39,317 nucleotides of DNA, taken from contig CAZOYN010000002.1 in NCBI GenBank assembly GCA_964584135.1, forward strand, positions 918 through 40,234, given 5' to 3'. The translations under genes were made by a program, and so were the position numbers. The notes under the pieces are model-generated. The model ran no database searches and had not been told where the DNA came from. It saw only the letters and a list, made by a program, of their open reading frames with translations. Of the stretch, positions 19,585 to 39,223 are shown in pieces. Position 1 is the stretch's first letter, and each line of letters begins with the position of its first letter. This stretch comes from an uncultured Candidatus Saccharibacteria bacterium. GTDB taxonomy: Bacteria > Patescibacteriota > Saccharimonadia > Saccharimonadales > UBA4665.

Positions 19585-19747
19585 TAATCGCTGCTCCAGG
19601 CTTTTCTTTTAGTTTGTTAGTTCAATCAGGGTAGGGAGCACTGTTGTGTTTCAATAGAAGCTTGCATCTCTTCCTCCGCTTGTTCAACGGCAGTTACACC
19701 GAGCCTACGCACGACAAACTCTTGCTCGGTATGTAACACGGTTTCGG

Positions 19748-20812
19748 TCAAGTTCTTTTCAGGCGACCGCTTTTGAGGATTTGTTGGAACTCTTGGCGCT
19801 CACCAAGCCAGAAGCTAAAGGTCATCAGCACAATCGTCCCGTAGGCCGGCCAGGCCAGCCACAGCCAGTGGCCGTGCTGGGACAAAAAGCCCGGGCCGGT
19901 GGGCTGCGTGGGCAGGGCGAAGCCGCCAGTGCCGGGCACTTTGATGAGTGCCGCCAGCTGCAGGAACGCCCGCTGTCCATTGGCGTCCGTCGCTTGGATG
20001 CGCACCGGGTAGTAGCCCGATTTTTTATAGCGGTGCTCGATCTGAAGCGCCAGGTTTTTATCAAGCAGCCTGCTCGAAGTACTGCCATCACTCCAGTCCA
20101 CCAGCAGATAGAATGGTGGCCGCCCTCCCAGCACTACGACGGACCAGTTGAATGTGCTACCCGGCGCAAAGGCCTGGAAATGGAACTCGCTCGATAAGAA
20201 CAGCGGCAAGGTGCTGCCGGCAGCGGCTGGGCCGGTAACCACGATGCCCTGTGGCCGAGTCGGCCGCTGGGTGATGGGCTGGCCCGGAGATTGGGCCGGC
20301 GGCGCGTAGGTAACGTGGACGCTCGGTGTGGCCGGTCCTGGATCGTCCGTGGTGTTATAGTCTTGCGCTGTCAGCACATTCATACCTTCCATCAGCCCGG
20401 TCTGGATATCGAAGGTGCCGTTGGCGTTGCACCAGGCGGTGCCGTCAAAGGCACCATTGAGCGTCAGCTTAACGTAGGAGTTCTGCGGGCAGGTGCCGTG
20501 GACAGTAATTGGCACCGAGGTGAACACTTGGCCGTCGGTGGGATAGGTGATGACTGCCCCCTGGCTGAGTGGCGGGGCTGGTACCCGGCCATTGACGGTG
20601 TAGGAAACGGCAACCGTCTTCACCGTCCAGCCGGCAATGAATACGCCGACACACAGCAAGCCGAAGACGGTGATGGGGTGTATCAGGAATCGCCGGTGCA
20701 GGGGTTGGCGCCGCCGGATAGTACGTTTCACGCGAGCCCGCTGCCGGTGCGTGGCCGTAGCCCGCTTGGTTTTAGTAGTGCGCCGCTTGGCGCTGGGTTT
20801 TTTGGTTTTCAT
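19748..20812 (-). CDS. Surface-cluster gene 9: membrane protein anchored at both ends, with Ig/PKD-like ectodomains
   Basis: Lys/Arg-rich N-tail plus a TM helix (ITVFGLLCVGVFIAGW). PKD-like block (VDWSDGSTS...HRYKKSGYYPVRIQATDANG). C-terminal TM (AYGTIVLMTFSFWL). Confidence 0.7.
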   Translation of the reverse strand: MKTKKPSAKRRTTKTKRATATHRQRARVKRTIRRRQPLHRRFLIHPITVFGLLCVGVFIAGWTVKTVAVSYTVNGRVPAPPLSQGAVITYPTDGQVFTSVPITVHGTCPQNSYVKLTLNGAFDGTAWCNANGTFDIQTGLMEGMNVLTAQDYNTTDDPGPATPSVHVTYAPPAQSPGQPITQRPTRPQGIVVTGPAAAGSTLPLFLSSEFHFQAFAPGSTFNWSVVVLGGRPPFYLLVDWSDGSTSSRLLDKNLALQIEHRYKKSGYYPVRIQATDANGQRAFLQLAALIKVPGTGGFALPTQPTGPGFLSQHGHWLWLAWPAYGTIVLMTFSFWLGERQEFQQILKSGRLKRT

Positions 20813-20877
20813 TTAGCTGCTTATATTATTAAACAATAGCAGTAATAATGCCAGAGGGTTTGCGCGAAATAAGCCAC

Positions 20878-21381
20878 CTACTTGATAACTTGCATGGTGT
20901 TGAATAGGGTGCGCCAACTATCGGTCGATAGAGGCTTGGCGGGGCTCACAAACACCAATGTACCGCTTGTGAATACCACTGCCTCTTCCTTGCCCTTCAG
21001 CTCAGTAGGCCGCACAAGGTTGACCGTACCATTGGCCGTGCCAATACTTTTAAACTGGTTCAATTTAGTAAGCAGAGTGGGATAAAACTGCGGGATGTCG
21101 TTGAACTGGCTGGGCGCTGCCTGCTCATTAAAAGTAATTGCGTTGTCAGTGCTGTGGGCAGTAAAACTCAAAACTCCAGACTGCGGATTGTAACTGTAGT
21201 CACTGGGAGCTACCTGCAGGGGTGCAGCTGGTATATAGACTACGAAACTGACCTGTTTAGCAATCGGGCTGGGCAGAGGACTTCCAGACTGGTCTTTTAT
21301 AGATATGACGAGCACAACCAACCCAATCGCTAAAACTATGGCTACACAGATCCAAAATATACGAAAGTGTAGTATTTTCAT
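20878..21381 (-). CDS. Surface-cluster gene 8: N-terminally anchored small ectoprotein (DUF4367/LolA-like pattern)
   Basis: TM helix IFWICVAIVLAIGLVVLVISI followed by about 135 aa. The ATG directly abuts the giant gene's stop (TAGATG). Confidence 0.7.
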   Translation of the reverse strand: MKILHFRIFWICVAIVLAIGLVVLVISIKDQSGSPLPSPIAKQVSFVVYIPAAPLQVAPSDYSYNPQSGVLSFTAHSTDNAITFNEQAAPSQFNDIPQFYPTLLTKLNQFKSIGTANGTVNLVRPTELKGKEEAVVFTSGTLVFVSPAKPLSTDSWRTLFNTMQVIK

Positions 21382-24300
21382 CTATCTTATATTTATATCA
21401 ACCAGAATTGAGCCGCGGCAGGTATCGGCATTAGCCGTGGTGCTGCACTGGGTACCTGGCGCGTTGAATGGCGACTGAGCCAGGCCAAGATAGGTATAGG
21501 GGATGTCCGTTTGGGCAAGCGTAACCAGGGCTGAGGTGTTAACAAAGCCGGCAGTGGCCGTGGGTTTTACGTACGCCCCGACTGAACCGGCGGTGGCTTG
21601 CACGTACACTGGCCCAGCAACCGCAGCAAAACCTGTAATGGTATTAGTAGACGTAAAGCCATTCCATGAGACGAGCACACCAAAGAACGGGCTGGTTGTG
21701 GCGCTCGTAGGCGCTACTTCACCAATAGTTCCGTTCAGCTTCAAGGCCTGTCCAATTGCGGTTGCGGTTGCCACTACTACAGGTATCTTGGTAGAGGTGG
21801 TAAAAGGACGCGTATCATAAATTATACCAATGCCGCTGCCACCAGAGATTTCCTTTATAGTTGCCAGGCAGATAGATGGAGACCCTGGGCTCCACGTGCC
21901 AGGCACAGAGGCAGAAGTTTCCGTGATACTGGCCGTACCGAACGTCGGCTGGTTGCCGGCTGTGAAGACGCAGAGATTTTGGAAGACCGATCCGGTAGTG
22001 GTGATACCTGTAGTGTAATCAGTCGTTTGGGCGTTTATGATTTCCTTCCGGCCATAGGCGTATAGCGTACAGCCTGTCCAGCGGATACTATTAGCCACAC
22101 TGCCCATGTAAACCCTGCAGGGCCCTTTGGAGGTATCACTACCTGCCACGCCGGCTACGTCGCCGGCGTTGGAGTTTGCTCCACTATCTGGGACCACGCC
22201 AAACATTATCATCCCCAAGCCCGCTGTTGATACTAGGTCTTCCCAGTTACCAACACTATTAATGGTGTCATTAATGCAAGCTCTGATTGAGTTCGTAACG
22301 GTGTTATAGTATAGCGCGCCGTTGTTCAGAGTAGTTGAGCAGGAGCTAGAGGCATCGGTATATGTGTTGTACGAATCCAGTCCTAATACTACTTGGTTGG
22401 CGTCGCTGGTTTGTGAACCGATTTGGACTGCTTTTTTGTGATTATCAGCACTAAAAATCATATTCAGTCCCTGCCAGTCCCAAACCTGCAATATCGCTCC
22501 TTCATCTGAACTTGTATGAATTACCAGCGGGCTACTAATGATACCGCGCAGTTGGATTGCAGCTGGGTTGTAAGGTCCCACGCTGCCTCCAGAGGTTAAC
22601 TGGACAGCATCTATCCACAAGGTACCGCTGGTTGTGGTGCTGCTAATAGTCACGCTGTTGAAAGTACTGGTGGCGGTAACGGTACAGGTATAACGCTGCC
22701 AGCCGCTGCCCGATACCCACGATGTACTATTAAGCGTGCAGGTCGCTCCACCTATTGTAGGACTGACGAGTGTAACTGACGCTACCGAAGCAGTAGCAAA
22801 GAAACTAAAGGCATAGGTGCCAGTCGGCAGCGTAGTACCGAGTGCCACCGTTGCCCCAGGTGTGGTGGTGCCAAGGGTGATGGCCATGCTGCCAGTGCCT
22901 TCATAGACTTCACTGGTACTAAAAGTTCGACTAGTGGACGCGATGGTCGCATTGCCAGTGGCCGACCAGCTGGATATACCTGTCTCAAAATCTGAGTTAG
23001 GGATTAAGTTATTCGTCGTTGTATCTACCGATAATAGTGAAGAGGCGCTGGAGTTTTGCACTTGAAAAGCTGCGTTGGAATTAGAACTAGCTTCAAAGAA
23101 TGCCGGGTTTGTGACAGTACCACGTAACTGTATGGCACCGATGTCATAGGGTTGCAATACCGAACCGCTGGCGAGCATGACGGCATCGACGTATAGCGTG
23201 GCGTTCAGCGTCGAAGTAGTTATAACAATCGACGTGGTGGTACCGGTCGTTGTAACGGTGCAAGAGTAGCGCTGGAAACCAGTATTAGAAATGCTGGTTG
23301 AACTAAGGCTGCAGGTACCGCCTCCGCCCGTAAAGCTGACAGTTGAAGCCAATGTGATAGAACTATCGCTCATAGCGTAGAAACTAAAAGTATAGGTACC
23401 GGCTGAAAGCGTGGAGGTAAAACTATTTACGGTGGCTGTGGTATTGCCCGACGTAGCAGTCGTACATTTTAGGCTGGCGAGACCGTAGTAAACCCGTGAT
23501 ACGGTGGCGGTATTTTGCACACAGCTGGCACCCGTGCCGCTACCACTCCAGCCCGAGACCCCGGTTTCAAAACCAGGGTTGGTCAGCAAGTTGCTGTTCG
23601 TCGTATCCACCAGTAAAACAGGCTCACTATTGGCGTTTTGGACCTGGAAAGCGGTAGCAGAGCCGGCTGCGGCAGTATTCTGGACAGTATCGCCACTGTT
23701 ACTAATCGTTTCAGTGGTAGCGCCAGCCTGCAAAGTTATGGTGGTGCTGCTCTGAGTGTTCCCCGCGGTTATAGCCTTGTTCTGGGCACCGTTACCAATA
23801 AGAATGCTGGGTGTGGAGCCGCTGGTGGCGTCGAGCGTTAAATTGCCACTGGAAGTCGTCAGCGTAGAAGCGGCATTGCCCTGCAATGTGATGGCTCCAC
23901 CGGACACGGAGATGCCAGCGCTACCGGTGATCAGCGCGCTGAAGGTTTTGGCACCGCCGATTGTTTGGGGGCTGGCGTTTATGACGCCAGGGTGGGTGCC
24001 ATCTGCCGAGTTGAGATTGAGCACCGAACCAGTCAGCGTAGCGCCGTTAGCGTTGGCTGATCCGGCTGAATCAACTGCCCCGAGGCTAATACCTCCCCCA
24101 CAGCTGCCCCATTGCAACCCAGTCACCGTGCTGGTAGAAGCTGAGGTTGATTGCAGGCACTGGGTGCCGGTGGCACCGCTGGTTGCCCAAGACAGCGAAT
24201 AGCTGTTGGCCAGGCCCGGCATGGTCAGGGTGACCGTCCGGTTGTTTGATGTACCGTCCTGGAAGACTATGCCGCCAGTTGCCGTGGTAGAACCTAGCGT

Positions 24301-25080
24301 CAAGGCATTAACCCCTGCCAGCGTGGCCGTAATGCTACTACCGCCAGTCAAGTTATTAAGCAACGTAATGCCGGTCGCAGTGCCACCTCCGAGACTCAGG
24401 GCGCCGCTGGTAGCGGCATCCAATGTATTGGCGTGCACGGTGCCACCGGACTGGATATTGCCGGAGACATTAATGCTGCCGGACTGCTGTGAGCCGGGGC
24501 TCAGTTGCACCAGCTGGCTGACTGTCAGGCCGCCGACGCGGTTGGCGTTCAGGGCTTGGGGTACAGCCGTCAGGCGGATGAAGGGGGTCATTTCGCCGTC
24601 GCCACCACAGCCTGTGTGAAAGCTAGTTGTTGATGAAGTGACCGTACACGAGCTGGTGTTGCCGACCTGGAACGACAGCCACAAGGTGTCTTGGTTGAAG
24701 TCCACCCCGGTGTTGGTTTTGGCGCCGCAGGTACTGCCAGCCAGCGCACAGATCGAGCCCAGGTTGACGTTAAAGGTACCACTGCTGACGCTCACACCGC
24801 CGGTACTTGGCATGCCGGTGCTGCCAGAGACCAGGTAGTCCTCGGTCCACATCAGCGTGCTGCCGGTCCCGCTGCTGTTGCCGTCCTGGTAGATCTTGAA
24901 CTCCATGTCGTAGGTGCCGTCCGCCAGGTTCACGCCGCTGCTATTGACAACCTTACCCTGAAACGTTAGCTGTTGGTTGATGCCGGCGGCAGCCTGAACC
25001 GGCGCAGCTTGCGTAAGGCATGCTGCAACCAGCCCCACAACCAGTAATCCAATACCCTCAAAAGCTTTTCTGCCAGACAT
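21382..25080 (-). CDS. Surface-cluster gene 7: 1232-aa secreted fibre/adhesin-like protein with tandem CBM-like modules
   Basis: Signal peptide (GLLVVGLVAACLTQAAPVQA). N-terminal LTFQGKVVNSSGVNLADGTYDMEFKIY...TFNVNLGS...LTAVPQAL module resembling tail-fibre N-domains. Thr/Ser/Gly-rich beta repeats. Two ~180-aa repeats with an N-x-x-F-E-T-G...W motif. Cys-containing C-terminal region. Confidence 0.85.
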   Translation of the reverse strand: MSGRKAFEGIGLLVVGLVAACLTQAAPVQAAAGINQQLTFQGKVVNSSGVNLADGTYDMEFKIYQDGNSSGTGSTLMWTEDYLVSGSTGMPSTGGVSVSSGTFNVNLGSICALAGSTCGAKTNTGVDFNQDTLWLSFQVGNTSSCTVTSSTTSFHTGCGGDGEMTPFIRLTAVPQALNANRVGGLTVSQLVQLSPGSQQSGSINVSGNIQSGGTVHANTLDAATSGALSLGGGTATGITLLNNLTGGSSITATLAGVNALTLGSTTATGGIVFQDGTSNNRTVTLTMPGLANSYSLSWATSGATGTQCLQSTSASTSTVTGLQWGSCGGGISLGAVDSAGSANANGATLTGSVLNLNSADGTHPGVINASPQTIGGAKTFSALITGSAGISVSGGAITLQGNAASTLTTSSGNLTLDATSGSTPSILIGNGAQNKAITAGNTQSSTTITLQAGATTETISNSGDTVQNTAAAGSATAFQVQNANSEPVLLVDTTNSNLLTNPGFETGVSGWSGSGTGASCVQNTATVSRVYYGLASLKCTTATSGNTTATVNSFTSTLSAGTYTFSFYAMSDSSITLASTVSFTGGGGTCSLSSTSISNTGFQRYSCTVTTTGTTTSIVITTSTLNATLYVDAVMLASGSVLQPYDIGAIQLRGTVTNPAFFEASSNSNAAFQVQNSSASSLLSVDTTTNNLIPNSDFETGISSWSATGNATIASTSRTFSTSEVYEGTGSMAITLGTTTPGATVALGTTLPTGTYAFSFFATASVASVTLVSPTIGGATCTLNSTSWVSGSGWQRYTCTVTATSTFNSVTISSTTTSGTLWIDAVQLTSGGSVGPYNPAAIQLRGIISSPLVIHTSSDEGAILQVWDWQGLNMIFSADNHKKAVQIGSQTSDANQVVLGLDSYNTYTDASSSCSTTLNNGALYYNTVTNSIRACINDTINSVGNWEDLVSTAGLGMIMFGVVPDSGANSNAGDVAGVAGSDTSKGPCRVYMGSVANSIRWTGCTLYAYGRKEIINAQTTDYTTGITTTGSVFQNLCVFTAGNQPTFGTASITETSASVPGTWSPGSPSICLATIKEISGGSGIGIIYDTRPFTTSTKIPVVVATATAIGQALKLNGTIGEVAPTSATTSPFFGVLVSWNGFTSTNTITGFAAVAGPVYVQATAGSVGAYVKPTATAGFVNTSALVTLAQTDIPYTYLGLAQSPFNAPGTQCSTTANADTCRGSILVDINIR

Positions 25081-25122
25081 AGGCTACGTGTTTTGGTCCC
25101 TACCCAGACTATTACAGTGGTA

Positions 25123-25151
25123 AGTATAAGTTCTTTAAGCCAGCCAGTCAA
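25123..25151 (-). promoter_or_regulatory. Putative sigma70-type promoter in front of the giant gene
   Basis: On the minus strand: TTGACT (25151-25146), 17-nt spacer, TATACT (25128-25123), about 40 nt upstream of ATG 25080. Confidence 0.45.
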
Positions 25152-25156
25152 TCTGC

Positions 25157-26092
25157 TTACGGCTTAAATCGCCGGGCAACGTACCAAGCCGTTGCCAGCA
25201 GTATCGGCGGCAGTACGAAAAGCCACGGGTTGATGTACAGGAAAGCGACGTTATAGGTTGAGAATTTAGCCGAATTATCCGGCCGGTACCGTATGCGCAC
25301 ATGGTACTCGTGAGGCCACCAGGGGCGTCCCAACTTAACCAGTGGTGTTGGCAGCAGCCGGATGCTACCAGGCAACACCAGGGCTGAATCAGGGTTAATT
25401 ACCCCTGTGGCTATCGGCGATGAGGCTTTGCCGCCGTCAATTGTGACCGTACCCCGCGGGGTTGTCTGGGTATTGCCATCATCCTTAAAAAACAAGTTTA
25501 GGCTGGACGGGATGGAGTACTGTACACCAGTCACTTGGGGTGGTGGCATACTCAGGTCTTGGCTGCCGCCACCAGCGGTCGTGACAAACACTAAAGAGGT
25601 CAGCACTTGGTTGATACTCACCTTATTGCCCGAGCCGCTGGGGCCGGTTTTAAGCAATTGGTAAGTTACGGCGCCGTAATGGCCGCCGGGCGCCAGGCCC
25701 AATAGGCTAAACAAGTGGATGGTGACCTTGGCCGAAGCACCGGCGTCTAGGCCTAACTGCTCGGTACCTAAGCGCACCCAATTAGCCAAGCCGTGGCTTT
25801 GTTCCAAGTTGGTCGCCTGTTCGCCTAAAAAGGCGATGCCGCCAGATTCATTCAGCGTCTTGAAGTCGGCAAAACCGAGCTTGATTTGGACGGGGGAAGC
25901 GGTATTATTGGTGACTTGGACCGTAAAATTAGCTTGGTCCTGGCCGTCCACCAGGTGGAGCTGCTCTAAGACTGGCGCCACCGAGACACCGCTCAGCTTG
26001 GTAGCTGGGGTTGGCCCAGCCGCTCCAGCCGAACCAGCATACATGGCCAGCAGCGCCACGACCACCAGCAAACTGGCTAGACGCTTACGCAT
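25157..26092 (-). CDS. Surface-cluster gene 6: divergent third paralogue of the double beta-sandwich, C-terminally TM-anchored proteins
   Basis: Start MRKRLASLLVVVALLAMYAGSAGA (signal peptide) at 26092 overlaps the upstream stop (TGATG). The track's extra 107 N-terminal residues lie inside the upstream gene. C-terminal TM plus RRFKP. Confidence 0.7.
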   Translation of the reverse strand: MRKRLASLLVVVALLAMYAGSAGAAGPTPATKLSGVSVAPVLEQLHLVDGQDQANFTVQVTNNTASPVQIKLGFADFKTLNESGGIAFLGEQATNLEQSHGLANWVRLGTEQLGLDAGASAKVTIHLFSLLGLAPGGHYGAVTYQLLKTGPSGSGNKVSINQVLTSLVFVTTAGGGSQDLSMPPPQVTGVQYSIPSSLNLFFKDDGNTQTTPRGTVTIDGGKASSPIATGVINPDSALVLPGSIRLLPTPLVKLGRPWWPHEYHVRIRYRPDNSAKFSTYNVAFLYINPWLFVLPPILLATAWYVARRFKP

Positions 26093-27129
26093 CAGGTCCG
26101 CCTCCATCGTTTGACGCGCTGGTACAGGTTGCGGCCTAAGGCGTACAACCCACCCAAAGCCAGCACAGCCACGAGCAGCATAAGTAATAGCAATTTCCAG
26201 GGCAGCACCCAGAACGACAGTTCGCCCTCTATGGGGATGTCTCGGGTACCGTCGTTGTAGGCTAATAGCATACGGGCATAATACCGGCCAATGCGTAGTT
26301 TGCTCAAGTTGGTACCGCTCCAATCCAGTTGCCGCAGGGGTATACTGCTTTTGTCGGCAATGGTCTGGCCGTCCACCTGTTTTATCTGATAGCGTGGAAA
26401 GCCATCTTCCCACAGCACCGTGAAAACCCGGTTGCTCCCCGGCAGGATGTTGCCCTGCGCCTGATTAATTTCCAGTGTGGCGATGGGGTCTTTACCGTTC
26501 CGGCTAATAAAGATGTCGCCCGCTGGCACGGCATGGACATTCCCGCTGTTGTGGACGGTGATGTCAAAGGAAGCCGGCAGGTAATCGTACAGTTTTTTGG
26601 AAGCGCTAAAACTAACCACGTTCAGCGTCCGCTTTTCGCCGGGGGCGTTAACGTCCAACAGCACCAAGGTGGCCACGGCACCGGTGACGACATTGTGCTG
26701 GCCGGTGGCGGTGGGTTTGGCGCCGGCTTCGCTAAAGACTACGGCGTAGTAATAGCCGAAAGCGGCCGTCTTGGGTACCTGTATGGTCATGGTGACGGTC
26801 TGCCAGACGTTCGGCTCAGCCACGAACGAAGACTCCGAAAAACTGACCCAGCCTACCGACTCGTCACCGGCCGCCGGTTGGATAATCTGCGGCTTGCCGC
26901 TGGTGCCATCGGCTTTGAATTTCATTAGCGTCACTTTAACCGTCACCGCTTGGCTGCCGGTGTTTTCGACTTTGATCGGCGTCGAGGTGCTGGCTCCCGG
27001 CTTGATGGACAAGCTAATCGGCAGCGGCGAGGTGGTCAGGTTAAAGTCCGCGGCGGCGGCCATGGCGGGGTCAATAAGTGGTAGCAGGCAAGCCAGGGTG
27101 ATGAGCACCACTGAGAAACGGCGCATCAT
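26092..27129 (-). CDS. Surface-cluster gene 5: signal peptide + two beta-sandwich-like domains + C-terminal TM anchor (DUF916/DUF3324-like architecture)
   Basis: AADFNLTTSPLPISLSIKPG...VENTGSQAVTVKV...FGYYYAVVFSE...VHNSGNVHAVPAGDIFIS...LSKLRIGRYYA, C-terminal TM plus a basic tail. ATGA overlap with the upstream gene. Confidence 0.8.
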   Translation of the reverse strand: MMRRFSVVLITLACLLPLIDPAMAAAADFNLTTSPLPISLSIKPGASTSTPIKVENTGSQAVTVKVTLMKFKADGTSGKPQIIQPAAGDESVGWVSFSESSFVAEPNVWQTVTMTIQVPKTAAFGYYYAVVFSEAGAKPTATGQHNVVTGAVATLVLLDVNAPGEKRTLNVVSFSASKKLYDYLPASFDITVHNSGNVHAVPAGDIFISRNGKDPIATLEINQAQGNILPGSNRVFTVLWEDGFPRYQIKQVDGQTIADKSSIPLRQLDWSGTNLSKLRIGRYYARMLLAYNDGTRDIPIEGELSFWVLPWKLLLLMLLVAVLALGGLYALGRNLYQRVKRWRRT

Positions 27130-28187
27130 GTCTGCTGCCTGTACTTTCGTTTATTGCGCCAGCGCATCAACAGGTACACCACTACCGCTGGTACGGTCGG
27201 GATGAGTATGGCGAACATGATCAGCCGCCAGGGTATGACCCAGAACGACAGCTCGCCCTCCACCGGCACGTCGCGGCTGCCATCATTGTAGGTCAGCAGT
27301 AAATGGGCGTAGTAATGGCCAATGCGCAGTTTACTCAAGTTGAGTCCGTCCCAGCTCAGTACCCGCTCCGGAAGACCGCCTGGGTCGGAGATAATTTGGC
27401 CATTGACCCGTTTTGTCTGGTAGGCTGGAAAGCCATCTGACCAACTGGCGGTGAACAACCGGCTGCTGCTTGGTAAAATATTTCCCCCCGAGGCATTGAC
27501 TGCCAGGTGGGCTATATCGTGTTGCTTATCCCGACTAATAAAGATGTCGCCCGACGGGACGGCGTGGACATTACCACTGTTGTGAACGACCACGCTAAAA
27601 TCGGCCGGCAGGAACTCATAGATTTTCTTGGCCGAGACGTAGCTGGTAACACTGAGCGTCCGCTTTTCGCCGGGGGCGTTGACGTCCAACAGCACCAGCG
27701 AGGCCACCGCGCCATGTACGGTGTTGTGCTGGCGCGAGATAGCTGTCTGGCCGGCATCATTCTCGCTAAAGACCACCGCGTAATAGTAGCCAAAAGCCGC
27801 TTCTTTAGGTGGCCGGATGGTCATGGTAACGGTCTGCCAGACATTCGGCTCGGCCTGGAATGAGGTTTCGGAAAAACTGACCCAACTGATATAAGTGTCA
27901 CGCGGCGTGGGGTCAACGATTTCCGGCTTGCCACTGGTGCCATCGGCCTTGAAGGTAAGCAAGCTTACCTTAACGCCCACGGTTTGCGACCCGGTATTCT
28001 GGACTTTCAGAGCCGTGCTGACGGTGCCGCCGGGCTTGACGGATAAGCTAATCGGCAGCGGTGAAACGGTCAGGTTGAAGTCCGCCGCCCAAGCAGCTAA
28101 CGGACTGGCAAGCGTGGTAAAAGCAAGGGCCAAGACTATTACTGCAGCCACCGCCCCGCTGGTCGAGGACCCCTTTAATACAAGCAT
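27126..28187 (-). CDS. Surface-cluster gene 4: paralogue of gene 5 (same architecture)
   Basis: By eye, well over half of residues are identical to 26092-27129, with long near-identical nucleotide runs. ATG 28187 is preferred (TATGCT 6 nt upstream); GTG 28202 is also possible. Confidence 0.8.
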   Translation of the reverse strand: MLVLKGSSTSGAVAAVIVLALAFTTLASPLAAWAADFNLTVSPLPISLSVKPGGTVSTALKVQNTGSQTVGVKVSLLTFKADGTSGKPEIVDPTPRDTYISWVSFSETSFQAEPNVWQTVTMTIRPPKEAAFGYYYAVVFSENDAGQTAISRQHNTVHGAVASLVLLDVNAPGEKRTLSVTSYVSAKKIYEFLPADFSVVVHNSGNVHAVPSGDIFISRDKQHDIAHLAVNASGGNILPSSSRLFTASWSDGFPAYQTKRVNGQIISDPGGLPERVLSWDGLNLSKLRIGHYYAHLLLTYNDGSRDVPVEGELSFWVIPWRLIMFAILIPTVPAVVVYLLMRWRNKRKYRQQT

Positions 28188-28233
28188 GTAATTAGCATAC
28201 ACTAGCCTGTCGTTTACCAGGGCTTATAGAGGT

Positions 28234-29289
28234 TTAGAAGTTGCCGGCGCCAATGACCGTGATGGTATCGGTGTAATCGTTAGCTGCCGGTGTTAGGGCT
28301 GATATAGCCGAACTTTCCTTGACGACGAAGGACGCGCTACTGGCTGTTCCGTTGGAAGAGATGATTTGGCGAATAGTCGAGTCCAGTCCAGAACCTTGGC
28401 CAGCTCCAGCTGTACCGCCCGAGCCATTGCCGTAGGCGTTTGAAGCGGTGGTGGTACCAGCGCCCGAACCCTGGGTAATGCTCGTGATGCCCATAACGTA
28501 ACCTTCGGTGCCGGAACTGAGTGTGGCGTTAGTCCCCGGAGTGGTAGAGGCGATGGTGTGGCTGGCCGCGGCTGAGTTTAGGCCAGTATTGCTATCCTTG
28601 GCCCAGGCTATCCAGCCGTTTTGGGCGTTGGTATTAACGGTGATGGTACAACCACTGGTGCTTACCACGGAACTAGCCGACAGGTTGGCGGTAAAGTTGT
28701 CGGTGTTACTGGCACAGCCGCTAATCACGAAGTTGAAGGTTGGCGGTACGCTGGCGTTAACGACTATCTGGTCGTTGGATACGGTGCGTACGGCAACGGT
28801 GGTTGAATCGCTACCGGCCGTGACTGTTGGGTGGTATTCACCGGCGGTCGCATCAGTAACCGCTGTCGCGCTGGTCAAGTCAACACAGTAAGCCGTGGTA
28901 GCTGCTAAGGCCGTCACGCTGCTTATTGTCACAGTGCTACCAGAACCAGCCGCCGTGATTGAGCCGGGTAGGGCGGTCGCCCCTGTTTCCGAAGCGCAGG
29001 TAGCTGAAGATACTGTCTGGGTAGTATTGACCGCGCCGCTGGAGCCGGTCCAGGTAGTGCTATCGGCACCGTTGAAGTTAATGGCTACCGATGTGGCGCC
29101 GGCCCCGACGGTCTTAAAGACTAAGCGGAAGCTAGTACCTTGCCCAGCCGCCATGCGGTTCAATCGGATATAGGTGTTGGTTAAGGTCGCGGCGGAAACG
29201 GGAGCCAGGGACAATGCCAGCAAATCGGCGGTTCCCAATAGAGAAGCTAGCACCAAAGCTATGGAGCGGTAGGAAAGCTTTAATTTCAT
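28234..29289 (-). CDS. Surface-cluster gene 3: secreted Thr/Ser/Gly/Ala-rich protein with a WxL-domain-like C-terminal module
   Basis: Signal peptide (...LSLAPVSA/ATL). No TM anchor or LPXTG seen. The C-terminal ~170 aa are alignable with the C-terminus of 29383-30414. Ends TPAANDYTDTITVIGAGNF. Confidence 0.8.
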   Translation of the reverse strand: MKLKLSYRSIALVLASLLGTADLLALSLAPVSAATLTNTYIRLNRMAAGQGTSFRLVFKTVGAGATSVAINFNGADSTTWTGSSGAVNTTQTVSSATCASETGATALPGSITAAGSGSTVTISSVTALAATTAYCVDLTSATAVTDATAGEYHPTVTAGSDSTTVAVRTVSNDQIVVNASVPPTFNFVISGCASNTDNFTANLSASSVVSTSGCTITVNTNAQNGWIAWAKDSNTGLNSAAASHTIASTTPGTNATLSSGTEGYVMGITSITQGSGAGTTTASNAYGNGSGGTAGAGQGSGLDSTIRQIISSNGTASSASFVVKESSAISALTPAANDYTDTITVIGAGNF

Positions 29290-29330
29290 AATATGTTTGT
29301 AAACCTTTGGTTTATTTTATAACTGGGTTA

Positions 29331-29360
29331 AGCATAAACTTTTTTAATCAGGGCTGTCAA
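29331..29360 (-). promoter_or_regulatory. Putative sigma70-type promoter for 28234-29289
   Basis: On the minus strand: TTGACA (29360-29355), 18-nt spacer, TATGCT (29336-29331), about 40 nt upstream of ATG 29289. Confidence 0.45.
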
Positions 29361-29382
29361 TGAGCAGCCTGTGGATAAACCC

Positions 29383-30414
29383 CTAAAAACTGGCGGCCGC
29401 CACGAAGGTCAGGATTTCCTGGTAGTCGTTAGCCGCCGGTGTAGTGGTTGCGGCCTTGGCTTTAACAGCCGCTGTTGCCGAACCGCCAGTCACCGCCGCC
29501 GTCGTACTAAAGATTGGCAGGAACGTCAGTGCCGGCGCGCCTACAACGCTGCCGGAGCCGTTATAAGGGCTGGCGATGGTCAGTGGGCCGCCAGACGATT
29601 GCGAAGCAGTCAAACCTTGGACACCGAAGCCTTGGGACTGGGAGCTCAGGTCGGCGCTGACCGCGGCGATGGTCGTAGACGTAGTGGTGCTTTTCAGCCC
29701 GACGTTGGCACCAGCTATATAGACATTGCCACCAGTACCGGCATTGGTCGAAAAACCAACCGCGATGTTCACTCCGCCGGTTATGACCGAACCGGCCAGT
29801 AAACTGCCGAGGTTCAGGCTGCTGGGGCTCAGGCTAAAGGTCAGCGAGGGGTTGGCGGTGCTGGCGTTGGCCGACGCGCCAAAGGCAGAGTTGGTAAACT
29901 GGCCCTGCATGGCCGCCACCTTCACGTAATAGGTCGTGTTCGGAGCTAAGCCGACAATAAACGAGCCGCTGGCGCCACCCCAGGCGGCGTAGCTGCGGTA
30001 GACTTGGCTGGCACCCAGCGTGCCGTCGGATTGCACATAGTTGACGCTGGCAAAATTGCTGACGGTTGATACGGCTATGGCGTAGGTGTAGTCGCTGGCG
30101 TCGGCCCCGCCCTTATTAATAATGCAATTCAGTTTGTTGTAGTAGGTGTTACTGCCATTGTCGAGCGTTGGTGCCAAGGGCACGTTGGCCTGCTGGGCCT
30201 GGATAGAGCTGGGCATAACCTTATCGGTGCTGCCGGTCGGCGGGGTACTGGACACCTCACCGGTGCTGGCGTTGAGCTGGTAGTTCGACGATGAAGCGCT
30301 GTTGGTGCCGCCCGACCCCAGGTTGTAATTTTGCAGCTGATAGGTAGTGCTTTGCGAAAAGGTAGCAAACAACAGCATCGTCATACTACCTAATGATCCC
30401 AAAGCCTTGAACAT
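29383..30414 (-). CDS. Surface-cluster gene 2: secreted protein with N-terminal S-x-NY repeats, FN3-like domain and the same C-terminal module as gene 3
   Basis: ATG 30414 gives MFKALGSLGSMTMLLFATFSQS, 10 nt after the upstream stop; the track start at 30498 overlaps the upstream gene. FN3-like LAPNTTYYVKVAAM. Ends TPAANDYQEILTFVAAASF. Confidence 0.8.
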   Translation of the reverse strand: MFKALGSLGSMTMLLFATFSQSTTYQLQNYNLGSGGTNSASSSNYQLNASTGEVSSTPPTGSTDKVMPSSIQAQQANVPLAPTLDNGSNTYYNKLNCIINKGGADASDYTYAIAVSTVSNFASVNYVQSDGTLGASQVYRSYAAWGGASGSFIVGLAPNTTYYVKVAAMQGQFTNSAFGASANASTANPSLTFSLSPSSLNLGSLLAGSVITGGVNIAVGFSTNAGTGGNVYIAGANVGLKSTTTSTTIAAVSADLSSQSQGFGVQGLTASQSSGGPLTIASPYNGSGSVVGAPALTFLPIFSTTAAVTGGSATAAVKAKAATTTPAANDYQEILTFVAAASF

Positions 30415-30424
30415 ACCTACTATA

Positions 30425-31342
30425 CTATCGCCACTGCCAACTACTGGCAATGCCCAGCAGGGCCGTCTGCATAGCAGCGGAATCGTCAGGCGTACCACCG
30501 CTGAGGGCCAGGCTGGCCACCAAGCCTTGGTGTTGCAAGTAGAGCACCTTACTGAAGTTAAAGCCCGAGCTTTTATCGCTAAACACGTGGACCATAGCGC
30601 CGTTGACGCTTACAAGGTCATCGGTGAAGCGGTCGGGGGTTACCGAACGGAAGTGGTACGAACCATCGTCATTTACATTACCGCTGGGTAGTGATTCAAT
30701 CTGGATAGCCAGTTGCCAAGCCAGCACCTGGTGCCTTACAAAGATATAGTTTTCGAGTATGGGCTGGCGCGGCGGATCGGTATGGCTCTGGCTAAAGTAG
30801 TCGCTATAGCTAAACCTAAAACGTTGGCCGTTAAAGTGTACTAGCTGTGGTGCCGGTGAGTTAGGCTGGACTTGTGATGTATCTAAAGTCCCCTGGCTGG
30901 AGGTGTTGAATGAGCGCACCAGCCAGACGGCCACTACAGCTGCTACCAGCACGGACATGCCGCCGGCGATTGCCAGTGTGCGGCGCCTGGCATACGGTTT
31001 GGTTTTTGACAGCGGGCTTGGCTTAGGTTTGCTAGTGGCGGTTGGCATAAAATACGTCTGCAGGCAATAGGCAAAGGCCGCCAGCACCAGTGCGGCTTGC
31101 CCCACTATCAGCACCTTGTCGCCAAGCCTCACGAACTTTATCAGCAACAGACCCAAGCCGAGCAGTAAGAGTATGAAGTGCCGCCGGCTGATCTGGCCCG
31201 GCCGGCCACTGCCGGCGTGACGGCTGGCCAGCATGAACTTAGCCGATACGACACCAAAAAAAGCCAAAACCATCACATTTATAATAAGCGTAACCATTGC
31301 CGCTATTATGACATACCCGAAACGGCTGGGAGAGTCGGACAA
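30425..31342 (-). CDS. Surface-cluster gene 1: polytopic membrane protein with C-terminal ectodomain
   Basis: Four hydrophobic helices in the first ~135 aa, then a ~170-aa soluble domain. TTG start at 31342 (ATG alternative at 31297). Confidence 0.65.
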   Translation of the reverse strand: MSDSPSRFGYVIIAAMVTLIINVMVLAFFGVVSAKFMLASRHAGSGRPGQISRRHFILLLLGLGLLLIKFVRLGDKVLIVGQAALVLAAFAYCLQTYFMPTATSKPKPSPLSKTKPYARRRTLAIAGGMSVLVAAVVAVWLVRSFNTSSQGTLDTSQVQPNSPAPQLVHFNGQRFRFSYSDYFSQSHTDPPRQPILENYIFVRHQVLAWQLAIQIESLPSGNVNDDGSYHFRSVTPDRFTDDLVSVNGAMVHVFSDKSSGFNFSKVLYLQHQGLVASLALSGGTPDDSAAMQTALLGIASSWQWR

Positions 31343-32275: not shown

Positions 32276-32352
32276 GCGAGTGTAGCTCAGTTGTTTAGAG
32301 CGCTTCCTTGCCAAGGAAGAGGTCGAGAGTTAGAGTCTCTTCACTCGCACCA
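32276..32352 (+). tRNA. tRNA-Gly(GCC), encoded CCA, atypical D-loop and T-loop
   Basis: Acceptor GCGAGTG/CACTCGC, anticodon stem CTTCC/GGAAG, loop TTGCCAA, T-arm GAGAG-TTAGAGT-CTCTT, D-loop AGTTGTTTA, discriminator A73. Confidence 0.85.
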
Positions 32353-32528
32353 AGATGACACCTAGAAAAGCTCCCTTGACAAGGAACTTTTTATTTATTG
32401 ATCGGACGCGCGGTTTTAACCTACGTCCTGTGAACTAGACCTAACGAGACAAAATGGCCCATTTTACAGATTGAAACGACGGTTATAACCAAATTATCGA
32501 ATAGTTTGTCCGGTGCTACAATAGCCTT

Positions 32529-33212
32529 ATGAGTGACGAATTTTCAGTTCTCAAAGAACGTATTGAGCGCTTACGTAAGATACACCTTAAAGCGATAGGT
32601 GCGTTCAATGCATTTGAACAACTTCAGGAATTCCGGGCACCTAATTTAATCGGCGAAGAGCTAGCCCATAAACATGCACAGGCAGTAGGTGTGTATAAGG
32701 GCTTCTTTAATGTTGCTGAGAATGCTTTGAATACAGAGCTACATATTGCCGTTGCTAAGCTGTTTGACTCACACAAAGACGCTCTTCATATCGAGAAATT
32801 AGTTAATTATGCAGAACAAAATCAAAGAACTATATCAGCCAGACAACAAGCGAGTTTAGACGAAGATGCAGAATATTCTTCGGAGCTTGCAAAAGTCTAC
32901 GAGGGACTGAGCAGGGATGATCTGCTTGAAATAAAAAGTAGCCTTGAGTCTGCCGGCGATAAAATAGCTCGATTAAAGGATGTGCGTGATAAAGAGGTTG
33001 CTCATGTTGATGTTAAAAAACAAGAGAATTTAAAATACTTAACATATGAAGAGTTTGCAGAGCTCATAGAATTATCGAAAAAAATTCTTAATCTAATATC
33101 GAAAAAACTTTACGGCGACATAGCGTGGTTTGAGCTATACAAAGAGCAAGTCGTAGAAGGTTCGCAGTTATTATTAAGACTTGTCGCAAAGTCTGAAGGC
33201 ATTGATAGCTAG
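32529..33212 (+). CDS. HEPN-domain protein, AbiU2-like (candidate abortive-infection RNase)
   Basis: All-helical 227 aa. Rx5H motif in LKDVRDKEVAHVD (R153...H159; nt 32985-33005) in the context typical of Abi-type HEPN families. TGcTACAAT ends 6 nt before the ATG. Confidence 0.55.
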   Translation: MSDEFSVLKERIERLRKIHLKAIGAFNAFEQLQEFRAPNLIGEELAHKHAQAVGVYKGFFNVAENALNTELHIAVAKLFDSHKDALHIEKLVNYAEQNQRTISARQQASLDEDAEYSSELAKVYEGLSRDDLLEIKSSLESAGDKIARLKDVRDKEVAHVDVKKQENLKYLTYEEFAELIELSKKILNLISKKLYGDIAWFELYKEQVVEGSQLLLRLVAKSEGIDS

Positions 33213-33220
33213 GATATAAA

Positions 33221-34042
33221 ATGAAAGACAGAATAATTTACTTTGCTTCTGCCATAGGACTGCTGATTATTATGGTTTTCGCCGTTAGCACGGTGATACT
33301 GACAGTTAATGATGGCTTTAAGACAGTAGCCAATAACGAAGCGTTTGTTAGTGCGTTTGCCGGAGCATTCTTTACTTTTATATTAGTGAAATTTGCTGAG
33401 CTCGGTACAAGATTACGCAATGTCGAGAAAGACAACTTGCAAGGGCTTGTTGCTATTAATCATACACTTATGGGACACATGAATCAGATTAGTAATGCGG
33501 ATTTTGTAGCTAAGGATATTATTGCCACATACGAGAAGACTACCTCTGCAACGGAACCAATAGCCATCAACTTCAACTTCTTTAAATCAATACCTTTTGA
33601 GCCTGAAACACTCAAGGTAATTCGTAACACTAAGTTTCTAAACGAAGTCTATAGTTACTACGCTGACACGGAAAAGCTAAACGATAGTATGATGGCACTG
33701 CAAAAGTTCATAGATGCCATCACCAACGGTCTAATTGGTGGCAATCTTAGCCGCACCGATTATTTGCAGAATGCACCGTTACTTAGTGAGAAAACCAAAG
33801 AGTTGCGTAAGTTCATAAAACACTCTTTAAAAGAAGCCGAGCGATTAACTGCCCTTGACCGCTTACTACTAAAGCATCGTAGTGTTTTATGGCGTTTGGC
33901 TGTCAATATCCGCACCTTCGATGAGTATTCCAAAAAGGTCAACGAGGATTTCGAGTCAGAGATGAACGTTATTAAGCAAGAGATAGCTGAAACTTCTGCC
34001 AAAAGTCGTGCTGAAATAGAGTCAATAGTTAAAGAGAAATGA
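33221..34042 (+). CDS. Membrane protein: two N-terminal TM helices + ~200-aa helical cytoplasmic domain
   Basis: TM1 IIYFASAIGLLIIMVFAVSTVILTV, TM2 AFVSAFAGAFFTFILVKFAEL. AGGA SD 7 nt upstream. 8 nt after the previous stop. Confidence 0.7.
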   Translation: MKDRIIYFASAIGLLIIMVFAVSTVILTVNDGFKTVANNEAFVSAFAGAFFTFILVKFAELGTRLRNVEKDNLQGLVAINHTLMGHMNQISNADFVAKDIIATYEKTTSATEPIAINFNFFKSIPFEPETLKVIRNTKFLNEVYSYYADTEKLNDSMMALQKFIDAITNGLIGGNLSRTDYLQNAPLLSEKTKELRKFIKHSLKEAERLTALDRLLLKHRSVLWRLAVNIRTFDEYSKKVNEDFESEMNVIKQEIAETSAKSRAEIESIVKEK

Positions 34043-34078
34043 TTCCTCTAGACCGAATGAAAAAGGCGATCTGTTCTT

Positions 34079-34912
34079 ATGAAAATGAATGACGTACAGG
34101 GTCAGCTTGCTCGGCTAAAAAGAGCTGATGATCTCGGTATAGAAATCTCTGAAAGTATTCAATCGTGGTCGAAAAAGAATTTAGATGCTCGTGTCGTAAT
34201 AAATAATGATCGTAAAGGTTGGTATTTAGAGTTACTGGTTAAGAATGATCCCCCTATCGACGAGTTGAGTATGCTATTCAGCGACGCTATTGGTCAGCTA
34301 AGAAATACATTGGATAACTTTGCGTATTCAGTCTTAACGCCCTTGGCTGTTGATAATACAAAATACAACCCCAAGCTAGTTAAATTTCCTATTGTTGCCG
34401 AAGAATCCAAGTGGGAAAAAGCAAGTAAGTCTATAAAGCACATACCAGAGCCATATTTTTCAAGAATTAAGAACGCACAACCTTTCGTAGCCAATTCGTT
34501 TCTCGGTCCAAATGAGATGGATGGCTTAACAGTATTACAATTACTAAGCAACGCTGACAAACATAATTTACAGATAATACCTCACTTAAATACGACTGAA
34601 ATAAACCATGAGATTAAAATAGAGTTTGCAACATTACACGATGCGAACATAAGTACCCCACCGAAAATAGAGATTCTTGCGCCAGTATTTAAAAATGGCG
34701 CACATTTAGTTAAGGGCGAAACAAAAGGTAAAATCACGTCAGTCGAAAACCACGTTAACGTGACTTCGCGCGTGATGATTAAGATTAACCAAGACCAAGC
34801 TGGCATTACACATATTCTGGCTGGTTTATGGGAGTATGTTGCAAAGTTATTAGTGAATATTGCTGATTTGCCACCTCGCGAATTTGAAAAGTGGGCGAAC
34901 AACCTTAAATAA
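34079..34912 (+). CDS. Hypothetical protein with a conserved-looking LLSNADKH motif
   Basis: 277-aa ORF, same strand, 36 nt after the previous gene. Motifs IGQLRNTLDNFAY and LQLLSNADKHNLQ. Family not recognised. Confidence 0.65.
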   Translation: MKMNDVQGQLARLKRADDLGIEISESIQSWSKKNLDARVVINNDRKGWYLELLVKNDPPIDELSMLFSDAIGQLRNTLDNFAYSVLTPLAVDNTKYNPKLVKFPIVAEESKWEKASKSIKHIPEPYFSRIKNAQPFVANSFLGPNEMDGLTVLQLLSNADKHNLQIIPHLNTTEINHEIKIEFATLHDANISTPPKIEILAPVFKNGAHLVKGETKGKITSVENHVNVTSRVMIKINQDQAGITHILAGLWEYVAKLLVNIADLPPREFEKWANNLK

Positions 34913-35063
34913 TGAACTCGCATAGAAGGTTATAATCCTTGACCTGGTTAGATACTAGCAGGACCGTACCTCTCACGGTAACTCCTTAAGGCAGTTACAC
35001 TTTGGCTAATAATGCCGCACCAAATTGACCCAAACAATTTTGAAACAGTATAGTTTCAAACAA

Positions 35064-35086
35064 AAGAGCCCATCAGGCTCTTGTTT
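35064..35086 (+). terminator. Possible terminator hairpin (preceded by a second perfect 8-bp hairpin at 35039-35060)
   Basis: AAGAGCC-catca-GGCTCTT followed by GTTT. Upstream hairpin TTTGAAAC-agtata-GTTTCAAA. Confidence 0.35.
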
Positions 35087-35103
35087 GGTATACTTTTATC
35101 AAT

Positions 35104-35604
35104 ATGGAAAAGCCAGAAGTTAGATTACTCATCACCGGTGGCACGATTGACGATGTAGATTACGACAAAGAAGAATACGCACCGATAAGCAGAGATTCTT
35201 TTATCCCAAGTTTGTTAAGACAATCCAGAGTAAGACTGAGGTATGAATATGAGATTATACTTCAGAAAGATAGCCGATTTATAACAGATGAAGATGTACA
35301 GCTAATTTTGGGAAAATGCCAGGCATCTCAAGAAAGTAAAATACTAATTACACACGGGACTTATACGTTAGCTAAAACAGCAAAGGCACTCGGTGCTTTA
35401 AATCTCCCTAAAACAATAGTGCTATTTGGTTCCATGGTTCCAATTAACCATGATGATTCAGATGCACTTTTCAATCTCGGTAATGCGTTTATGGCAGTGC
35501 AGCTATTACCTCAAGGTGTTTATGTCGTTTCAAACGGCAAAATTTTTAATTGGGACAATGTCAGAAAGAACGATGAAGGTAAGTTCTTTGAGCCGGAAAG
35601 ATAA
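35104..35604 (+). CDS. Short asparaginase/glutaminase-family protein (N-terminal domain only)
   Basis: LLITGGTIDD (catalytic Thr motif TGGTI), ILITHGTYTL (HGTDT-like), GSMVPINHDDSDALFNL. 166 aa, so it lacks the usual C-terminal domain. TGgTATACT ends 9 nt before the ATG. Confidence 0.65.
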   Translation: MEKPEVRLLITGGTIDDVDYDKEEYAPISRDSFIPSLLRQSRVRLRYEYEIILQKDSRFITDEDVQLILGKCQASQESKILITHGTYTLAKTAKALGALNLPKTIVLFGSMVPINHDDSDALFNLGNAFMAVQLLPQGVYVVSNGKIFNWDNVRKNDEGKFFEPER

Positions 35605-35740
35605 GCTGACGATGGGTTAAAATAATAAATCACTCGATAGATTAAATAGCCCAACAAGATTTTTTAACTTTTGACTGTCACAATGTTCAACGGCAGCCGT
35701 TTGCAATGCGTCAACGATATTGCACCAAAAGGGCATTATC

Positions 35741-35763
35741 GGACGCTCCGGCGTCCTTTTTTT
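35741..35763 (+). terminator. Rho-independent terminator
   Basis: GGACGC-tccg-GCGTCC followed by T7. Confidence 0.65.
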
Positions 35764-35854
35764 GGAGCTTAAGGCAAGTGGCCTGTTAACACAAACGAAG
35801 CTACAGGCCTTATGGACTTGAATTTAGGTAGTTTTATATTATAATTGCTTAAAT

Positions 35855-38637: not shown

Positions 38638-39223
38638 TCTTAGCTCCAATTTTAGTCTGTCTTGGGGCGATAATTAAGAAAAACAATACTGCACAAATCA
38701 GGGCTATATAAAGCGGAAAGCCATACTGGGCAAATGCCCACTGCTTAATTGTAAGTAACGTTATAATGGCACTTAGGCAGCCAAACAGAAAAACACCATA
38801 ATGTTCTGTTTTTGGTTCTTGGTACGATTTAATAACAGTTGGGGTGGCAGCTAATAAGTCAGCAGCAATACTGAATGCAATGGCTACATTTCCAACGCCT
38901 GTAATCTTCCATGCCACTAATGCCAAGAGCGATAAGACACCACAAACTATATCAAGTCTTGTAATTTTCCAAACGGCTTTACGGTTTATAAACGAAGCAA
39001 TTAGTACCATAGCTGGCCCAAACCCCACCATGAAAGTCATAATTGATCGTAAACCTACCCCTTGTCCAAGCTCGGCACTAAAGGCTATTAAAGGAGCTAA
39101 AGCCCAAAGGAACCAAGTAACACGGTTTGGTCTGGTTTTGCCTTTAAGTGTCTGAATAACATAACTGGAACTACCAATAAGGTTAAGAGCCGCACCAACT
39201 AGAACAAACTTTTCGTTAAGCAT
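38630..39223 (-). CDS. Polytopic membrane protein (hypothetical)
   Basis: 197 aa with about six hydrophobic helices. First gene of a four-gene overlapping operon. Confidence 0.7.
   Translation of the reverse strand: MLNEKFVLVGAALNLIGSSSYVIQTLKGKTRPNRVTWFLWALAPLIAFSAELGQGVGLRSIMTFMVGFGPAMVLIASFINRKAVWKITRLDIVCGVLSLLALVAWKITGVGNVAIAFSIAADLLAATPTVIKSYQEPKTEHYGVFLFGCLSAIITLLTIKQWAFAQYGFPLYIALICAVLFFLIIAPRQTKIGAKNE

Follow-up and report, generated by a model that had tools for sequence, protein, structure and literature searches.

We analysed a 39,317-nucleotide (nt) stretch of an uncultured Candidatus Saccharibacteria contig (CAZOYN010000002.1, positions 918 to 40,234; hereafter the window), which probably belongs to the chromosome of a Saccharibacteria (Patescibacteria) host. 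Three adjacent genes of this stretch, designated g1, g2 and g3 (Table 1), are best read as the cargo of a small accessory/defence islet linked to a tRNA-Gly gene, in which a member of the AbiU2 HEPN family, a lineage-restricted membrane protein and a member of a mobile, unannotated family stand side by side. The reading that we favour, with a probability of roughly 0.6, is that the insertion at tRNA-Gly holds a mosaic of three independently circulating accessory genes and not a dedicated three-component machine.

The evidence that carries this reading came from a comparison of the three families across related loci, which are given here by L numbers. Six-frame open reading frames (ORFs) of 15 metagenomic loci, 120 genome loci and loci L141-L144 were searched with phmmer and hmmsearch. 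They covered six other contexts of g1, five of g2, three of close g3 relatives (L001-3) and ~112 of distant g3 relatives (105 genome loci, 5 plasmids and 2 phages). No pairing among g1, g2 and g3 was repeated in any other context examined (~130 related loci). When the 120 g3-type genome loci were searched with the g1 and g2 profiles (hmmsearch --max), nothing was detected at E<=0.1, and the single g1-profile match at E<=1 (E=0.24) was at chance level. The initial annotation had proposed that the three genes form one defence module. This proposal did not hold up, as the genes were not found together elsewhere, an outcome named in advance as speaking against it, and L002 keeps the leader that precedes the islet genes together with g3 (80% nt identity) while an unrelated gene of 325 amino acids (aa) replaces g1 and g2. 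Because the three-gene reading fails, the locus should not be entered as a new system.

The genes found beside the relatives were the following. Homologs of g1 had a 250-aa protein downstream (L010), a major facilitator superfamily (MFS) transporter upstream and a 72-83-aa acidic protein downstream (L011/12), an adjoining 401-aa protein ending in an RNTSSH motif (L013), an 80-aa transmembrane protein 2 nt upstream (L141) or an overlapping ~200-aa ORF with an RCSLSH motif (L142), and nothing was adjacent in L014/15. The g2 homologs neighboured a HAD-like hydrolase (L004/5), PDC-M14B-like 210-aa, 80-aa and Ntn-like 336-aa proteins within a serine-recombinase element at tRNA-Gly (L006-8), and a 297-aa protein with an ALRNYALH motif (L009). 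The 210-aa protein, located two genes upstream of the g2 homolog (L006 4119-4751), matched the PADLOC candidate PDC-M14B with E=6e-8. In L143 the g2 homolog is convergent with Obg and in L144 it lies between GuaA and an MFS transporter, so that two of the five other g2 contexts are plainly housekeeping. Upstream of the close g3 relatives we found a 197-aa multi-transmembrane protein (L001), a 325-aa Ntn/proteasome-like gene with a 4-nt overlap (L002) and a 304-aa secreted protein, after tRNA-Asn (L003). Ntn/proteasome-like genes (325-336 aa) were seen both beside a g3 homolog (L002 832-1809) and beside a g2 homolog (L006 6017-7027). They resemble each other in their N-termini, MxxIxGxxLxxxxYxxxDSRLS (pairwise E=3e-4 over 66 aa; Pfam Proteasome E=0.012), and as a link between g3 and g2 this weak similarity was judged suggestive, not established. 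PADLOC (PADLOC-DB v2) produced no match at E<=1 for g1, g2 or g3 and none for 65 g3-family members, consistent with the earlier statement that no named system fits, and NCBIfam and PHROGs gave nothing meaningful for the three genes.

As a description of the locus, the initial annotation was accurate. The ORF coordinates were confirmed, the genes lie on one strand with gaps of 8 nt (g1-g2) and 36 nt (g2-g3), the 3' end of tRNA-Gly(GCC) is 176 nt upstream of the g1 start, and the region is AT-rich, with a GC content of 0.39 in 32353-35013 vs 0.53 in 1-32275. The hairpin reported after the genes is present as well: a consensus scan found no terminator-like hairpin from 32353 to 35064, the first being that at 35064-35082, 3' of g3. 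Identity to the homologs was higher for protein than for DNA in g1 (85% aa, 74% nt), g2 (77%, 72%) and g3 (86%, 80%), indicating that all three are genuine genes under selection. They are probably co-transcribed, because the gaps are short, no terminator separates them and a conserved 136-nt leader lies upstream. An AGGA Shine-Dalgarno sequence overlaps the g1 stop codon ahead of g2. No Shine-Dalgarno sequence was found ahead of g1, where a TACAAT hexamer (window 32517-32531), at a site not listed by the promoter scan, ends 6 nt 5' of the ATG. Given this hexamer and the lack of a Shine-Dalgarno sequence, g1 may conceivably be translated from a leaderless mRNA.

The borders of the insertion were established by blastn of the region against the fetched related loci and by two flank/leader alignments. 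Immediately after the 3' end of tRNA-Gly, L009 continues with the counterpart of window 35015-35091 (85% identity, including the 35064-35082 hairpin) and L006 with that of window 35722-35761 (90% identity; hairpin and T-run). Since these loci join tRNA-Gly to sequences that are displaced downstream in the window, 32353-35013 (2.66 kb, comprising the leader, g1, g2 and g3) is, as judged from its flanks, an insertion at the tRNA-Gly 3' end. Each displaced flank opens with a short copy of the tRNA end, CGCACCAA in the first and GCACCAA in the second. The count of the CGCACCAA 8-mer was not significant (3 found vs 1.8 expected, with the copy at 39191 inside an ORF), and it is therefore the flank homology that carries the boundary claim. 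The two displaced tRNA-Gly ends, each with its own hairpin and T-run, look like a tandem accretion of small recombinase-less inserts at a single tRNA.

The leader is 78-82% identical to DNA that heads different gene sets in two other loci. Its copy in L002 (600-743) precedes the Ntn-like gene and the g3 homolog, and that in L009 (3716-3851) precedes the g2 homolog and the 297-aa gene, downstream of ClpB; of the three sites, only the window copy stands at a tRNA. The leader matched no Rfam family, no further copies were found in viral contigs or fetched loci, and the three known sequences are too few to judge a structure. Similarity of each gene to its closest relative ends at or within a few tens of nt of the ORF ends, with the exception of g3 against L002, where it continues to the right-hand repeat. 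Because similarity stops near the ORF ends and the same leader heads different gene sets, these alignments indicate that the islet is a mosaic, pieced together at a hotspot from modules the size of single genes, with a common leader in front. The window ORFs at 32.3-39.3 kb revealed no recombinase domain, and L006 carries a 519-aa serine recombinase at the same tRNA-Gly. The arrangement resembles tRNA-linked genomic or defence islands that arise by site-specific integration in the insertion at a tRNA 3' end, followed by a displaced tRNA-end copy and then by the original flank with its terminator, and also in its deviant GC content, its variable content among relatives and the large serine recombinase found in L006. 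It differs from them in that the unit is very small, lacks its own recombinase and is bounded by a repeat of 8-9 nt, and in that the conserved leader accompanies cargo to non-tRNA sites (L009, L002).

Regarding the individual genes, g1 matched Pfam HEPN_AbiU2 (PF18734) over residues 58-197 (E=2.6e-15, 56.8 bits vs a gathering cutoff of 26.8). It contains ARLKDVRDKEVAHVD, with the R153-x5-H159 motif, and both R153 and H159 (VRDKEVAH) were invariant across 22 aligned homologs with identities down to 40%. A search of 5.8 billion proteins yielded 33 g1 homologs, all 33 with PF18734. On the strength of the above-threshold match and the invariant residues, g1 is by its profile a genuine AbiU2-type HEPN protein, a divergent but ordinary addition to a known family, and its earlier assignment as AbiU2-like with an Rx5H motif was confirmed. 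A profile search of the PDB revealed no solved structure (nothing below E ~0.01), and tblastn found no match to g1 in 72,556 plasmids or 50,697 phage genomes.

The surroundings of g1 homologs included an EcoRI-type methylase, GmrSD/HNH and two serine recombinases (L010), ThsB-TIR and ThsA-Macro (Thoeris) with HEPN_AbiV (L013), a type II restriction-modification (R-M) pair (L014), and SocA_Panacea with an IS1595 transposase (L011), in agreement with the linkage to R-M operons described for the AbiU2 family (Anantharaman et al. 2013, PMC3710099). In addition, resistance to T4 and T7 was reported for a single AbiU2-domain integron cassette (bioRxiv 10.64898/2026.03.17.712381). Thus g1 resembles the AbiU2 family in a score far above the gathering threshold, in the retained R-x(4-6)-H motif and in relatives that lie in or beside R-M and defence genes. 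It differs in that the window locus has no AbiU1-like or Sel1-repeat partner, its subfamily is divergent and has neither plasmid or phage tblastn matches nor a PADLOC model, and its two-transmembrane neighbour was not seen beside any other AbiU2 gene examined. We also observed that AbiU2 homologs are often overlapped downstream by unrelated proteins with an R-x4-H-type motif of their own (RCSLSH in L142, RNTSSH in L013); the partner regions, L142 1925-2656, L013 3249-4454 and L010 5684-6436, gave no Pfam match. These partners recall the 'Bxe_C0808 HEPN in operon with AbiU2' noted in PMC3710099, and judging from their motifs those of L142 and L013 would be better candidates for it than g2, from which the R-x(4-6)-H motif is absent, or g3.

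The second gene, g2, was described at the outset as a protein with two N-terminal transmembrane helices and a helical domain, and this was corroborated. Kyte-Doolittle hydrophobic segments at ~residues 2-33 and 40-61 were present in 7/7 family members, and the AlphaFold model (predicted local distance difference test score, pLDDT, 75) was all-helical beyond them. The second transmembrane segment and the stretch that follows (EAFISAFAGAFFTFILVKFAELG) are the best-conserved part of the protein. Because positive charges follow this segment, an N-in/C-in transmembrane hairpin with a cytoplasmic helical domain is suggested. The family comprised seven proteins in the whole database searched and is probably confined to Saccharibacteria. 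No match to g2 was obtained with Pfam, PADLOC or PDB sequences (nothing below E ~0.01 in the profile search), nor with tblastn against plasmids, and Foldseek against the PDB returned generic helical bundles alone (E>0.06). Pfam and PADLOC contained no matching SLATT, Csx28 or other effector profile, and there was no fold similarity to SLATT or Csx28. A relationship between g2 and AbiU2 was tested by comparison and rejected.

The third gene, g3, belongs to a large family. It contains the motifs quoted in the initial annotation, IGQLRNTLDNFAY and LLSNADKHNLQ. A word-indexed search with g3 recovered six proteins, the sole named one from a Candidatus Saccharibacteria metagenome-assembled genome (MAG), and a profile search of 1.84 billion representatives recovered 1,839 proteins at E<=1e-3 (284 at E<=1e-10), so the family comprises at least 1,839 clusters at 50% identity. 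Nearly all matches were 260-290 aa long and aligned full-length. In a 65-sequence alignment, L78, P104, Q134, K161 and H162 were invariant and W30, W63, R75, D79, F103, P135, L150, L153 and P195 near-invariant; 28/33 of the positions conserved at >=80% fall within residues 1-165. Residue 72 is a histidine in 80% of the family (HxLR motif) and a glycine in g3 and its five close relatives, so this clade may have lost a conserved polar residue. Neither g3 nor the 65 members, nor further members, matched Pfam or PADLOC, and g3-family proteins of 317-422 aa lacked Pfam domains and thus offered no informative fusions.

The AlphaFold model of g3 (pLDDT 79.7; predicted template modelling score, pTM, 0.73) consists of a long helix, a beta hairpin, a long helix with R75/D79 and a helical region ending in N158-x-D-K161-H162, followed by a beta-rich half and a final helix; the C-terminal half is more variable than the conserved helical N-terminal half. 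The model had no fold counterpart in the PDB (Foldseek best E=0.15; profile search nothing below E ~0.01), and it matched the predicted viral protein A0A514TZW7 (E=3.4e-12, TM-score 0.60). HEPN clans had been named as candidates for g3 too, and a degenerate HEPN was rejected: no HEPN was detected by Pfam in g3 and its 65 relatives or by PDB sequence and fold searches, hhalign against the AbiU2 alignment gave a probability of 0.1, and in place of R-x(4-6)-H the family conserves R75/D79 and K161/H162. A relationship to the 297-aa ALRNYALH partner of the g2 homolog was likewise rejected (hhalign probability 0.2).

The genomic distribution of the g3 family points to mobile elements. A degenerate two-motif DNA pattern gathered 120 reference-genome loci, of which 105 were confirmed by profile. 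They come mostly from Actinomycetota and also from Chloroflexota, Acidobacteriota, Dormibacterota and others, including one Patescibacteria genome. An IS1595-type transposase, the only recurrent neighbour, lies directly upstream in 17/105 loci (among L021-L140), and comparison with a transposase labelled by Pfam confirmed its identity (E as low as 2e-71). In L137 (5454-7642) and L109 (3834-6066), terminal inverted repeats (46 nt at 85% and 25 nt at 84%, respectively) enclose the transposase and the g3-like gene together, which makes the latter, as far as the repeats tell, a passenger gene of an IS1595 insertion sequence (IS). IS1595-family elements with passenger genes were reportedly described as 'transporter IS' by Siguier et al. 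(2009). The likeness to such elements does not extend to the window, where neither an adjacent IS1595 transposase nor terminal inverted repeats were found around g3. Tandem duplicates of g3-family genes were observed in L043, L132, L068, L066 and L052 (actinobacterial and Chloroflexota MAGs).

Five actinobacterial plasmids carry solitary g3-family 'hypothetical proteins' beside IS elements, recombinases or replication-relaxation genes. Plasmid homologs include vnz_RS37950 of Streptomyces venezuelae and one on pMSPYR102 of M. gilvum. Among phages, gp32 of Gordonia phages ZiggyZoo and Samba, annotated as a hypothetical protein, belongs to the family (ZiggyZoo profile E=1.6e-27). In both phages the gene (L145 3926-4753 in ZiggyZoo) is separated by ~2 kb from that for the serine integrase and is oriented opposite to the structural genes, like integrase-proximal morons of temperate actinobacteriophages. 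Integrase-proximal slots of temperate phages often hold prophage-expressed defence genes. The likeness is limited by the low identity between gp32 and g3, which align over no more than the N-terminal ~165 residues. IMG/VR yielded no close relatives of any of the three genes. We tentatively entertain that the g3 family is a new type of single-gene conflict protein (anti-phage, exclusion or addiction) with a previously undescribed fold, co-expressed here with an AbiU2 RNase.

Taken as a mosaic, the locus could work as follows. By analogy with the AbiU2 family, two g1 subunits would together build an R-x5-H RNase site, and RNA cleavage upon phage infection or stress would then lead to cell arrest. 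The pairing of g2 with g1 would be local, since the g2 family is small and mostly found alone beside housekeeping genes, and g2 may or may not modulate g1. The third gene comes from a family that mobile elements spread one gene at a time (as cargo of IS1595, on plasmids of actinobacteria and next to the integrase of Gordonia phages), and its product, with an enzyme-like N-domain and a C-domain that varies, might be self-sufficient in a role in conflict or maintenance. Several points weigh against this mosaic. Close spacing and the shared leader make co-expression probable and leave room for a lineage-specific functional coupling. Furthermore, both the g1 and the g2 family have few members, most of them sampled on short metagenomic contigs (some of ~1 kb, with several homolog contexts unseen). 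Finally, g1 homologs are tightly coupled to a variable neighbour at most loci (L010, L013, L142, L141, L011), which may mean that AbiU2 usually needs a partner, a role that g2 could fill here.

We consider it unlikely that the genes are non-defence cargo of a tRNA-linked variable region, with g1 as an addiction toxin that would stabilise the islet, g2 as an ordinary Saccharibacteria membrane protein and g3 as a mobile-element accessory factor for transposition or maintenance and not for anti-phage defence. The housekeeping contexts of g2, the g3 relatives inside IS1595 elements beside the transposase, the metabolic or detoxification proteins encoded by neighbouring cassettes (asparaginase N-domain, alpha/beta hydrolase, glyoxalase) and the empty PADLOC result for the three genes and 65 g3-family members would all fit such a view. 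It is countered by g1 relatives embedded among bona fide defence genes, by the protection against T4 and T7 reported for an AbiU2-domain cassette (bioRxiv 10.64898/2026.03.17.712381) and by the g3 relative in the integrase-proximal slot of temperate Gordonia phages.

It also seems rather improbable that g1 and g2 form a local two-gene module, in which g2 would be a membrane effector triggered by the RNase, or an anchor or antitoxin keeping the RNase restrained, and g3 an unrelated neighbour. The 8-nt gap with the AGGA sequence overlapping the g1 stop, and the strong conservation of the second transmembrane segment and its following stretch, speak for this coupling. So do g2 homologs lying tight against other candidate conflict genes (PDC-M14B-like and 80-aa in L006, 297-aa ALRNYALH in L009) and the 80-aa transmembrane protein just upstream of the g1 homolog in L141. 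The precedent of a HEPN RNase with a membrane pore is Csx28 with Cas13b (bioRxiv 10.1101/2021.11.02.466367). In Cas13b-Csx28/Csx27, as in g1-g2, a HEPN RNase gene adjoins a gene for a small membrane protein, which offers a possible analogy for g2 as a Csx28-like partner; in contrast, the window locus has no CRISPR array, g2 has no sequence or fold similarity to Csx28 and the pairing is not conserved. Indeed, the pair is unique to the window (g2 homologs in 0/6 other g1 contexts, AbiU2 in 0/5 other g2 contexts), the L143 and L144 g2 homologs stand alone among housekeeping genes, and g2 matched neither SLATT nor Csx28 nor any other effector profile.

A single novel system of the abortive-infection or toxin-antitoxin-like type, in which a HEPN effector would act with a membrane partner and a third component, agrees with the common strand, short gaps, lack of an internal terminator, single leader, single insertion unit and absence of a matching named system, but it is very improbable and largely refuted, as no pair or triple recurs in ~130 related loci, L002 swaps out g1 and g2 while retaining the leader and g3, and members of the g3 family typically occur singly where IS elements, plasmids and phages carry them.

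The features of the region are listed in Table 1. Beyond the right border of the islet, a 166-aa ORF forms its own small cassette; it covers positions 2-162 of 193 of the PF00710 profile and has about half the normal length of an asparaginase. In L009, a glyoxalase gene occupies the corresponding position. Upstream of the tRNA, the window contains a GC-rich block (17935-31342) encoding large predicted surface proteins (beta-helix, Big_7, fn3, PKD, Fn3-like) and several Ser/Thr/Ala-rich ORFs without a known family, including one of 1,232 aa at 21382-25080.

Table 1. Features of the tRNA-Gly-linked islet and its right-hand neighbours in the window.
Feature	Position	Strand	Evidence
tRNA-Gly(GCC); its 3' end is the insertion point	32276-32352	+	ARAGORN; Rfam tRNA, 69.5 bits
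CGCACCAA, tRNA 3' end, left copy of the short insertion-bounding repeat	32346-32353	+	Homology to L009
Conserved non-coding leader, opening with an imperfect terminator-like hairpin	32355-32490	+	78-82% identity to L002 600-743 and L009 3716-3851
g1, AbiU2-family HEPN protein, 227 aa, predicted RNase (Abi/toxin effector)	32529-33212	+	Pfam HEPN_AbiU2
g2, two-transmembrane protein with a ~210-aa helical domain, 273 aa in total, family n=7	33221-34042	+	Hydropathy, AlphaFold
g3, 277 aa, large unannotated family borne by mobile elements; conserved R75, D79, Q134, K161, H162	34079-34912	+	Profile search, alignment
Right border of the insertion: displaced copy of the tRNA 3' end (CGCACCAA, 35016-35023), then flank and hairpin 35064-35082	35014-35091	+	85% identity to L009 50-127
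Second small insert, 166-aa protein with an asparaginase N-terminal domain alone	35104-35604	+	Pfam PF00710, E=2.6e-22
Second displaced tRNA-end-like copy (GCACCAA, 35722-35728), hairpin GGACGC-TCCG-GCGTCC, T-run	35720-35765	+	90% identity to L006 363-402

For the Patescibacteria, the locus provides a clean example of a tRNA-Gly hotspot at which small recombinase-less cassettes accumulate behind a conserved leader, and it supplies a divergent AbiU2 HEPN gene in an episymbiotic lineage for which few candidate defence genes are listed. The g3 family is the more useful lead, being large, wholly unannotated and borne by mobile elements, with a predicted fold that has no solved counterpart. As members of this family occur in tractable hosts (Gordonia, Streptomyces, Mycolicibacterium), its function is directly testable.

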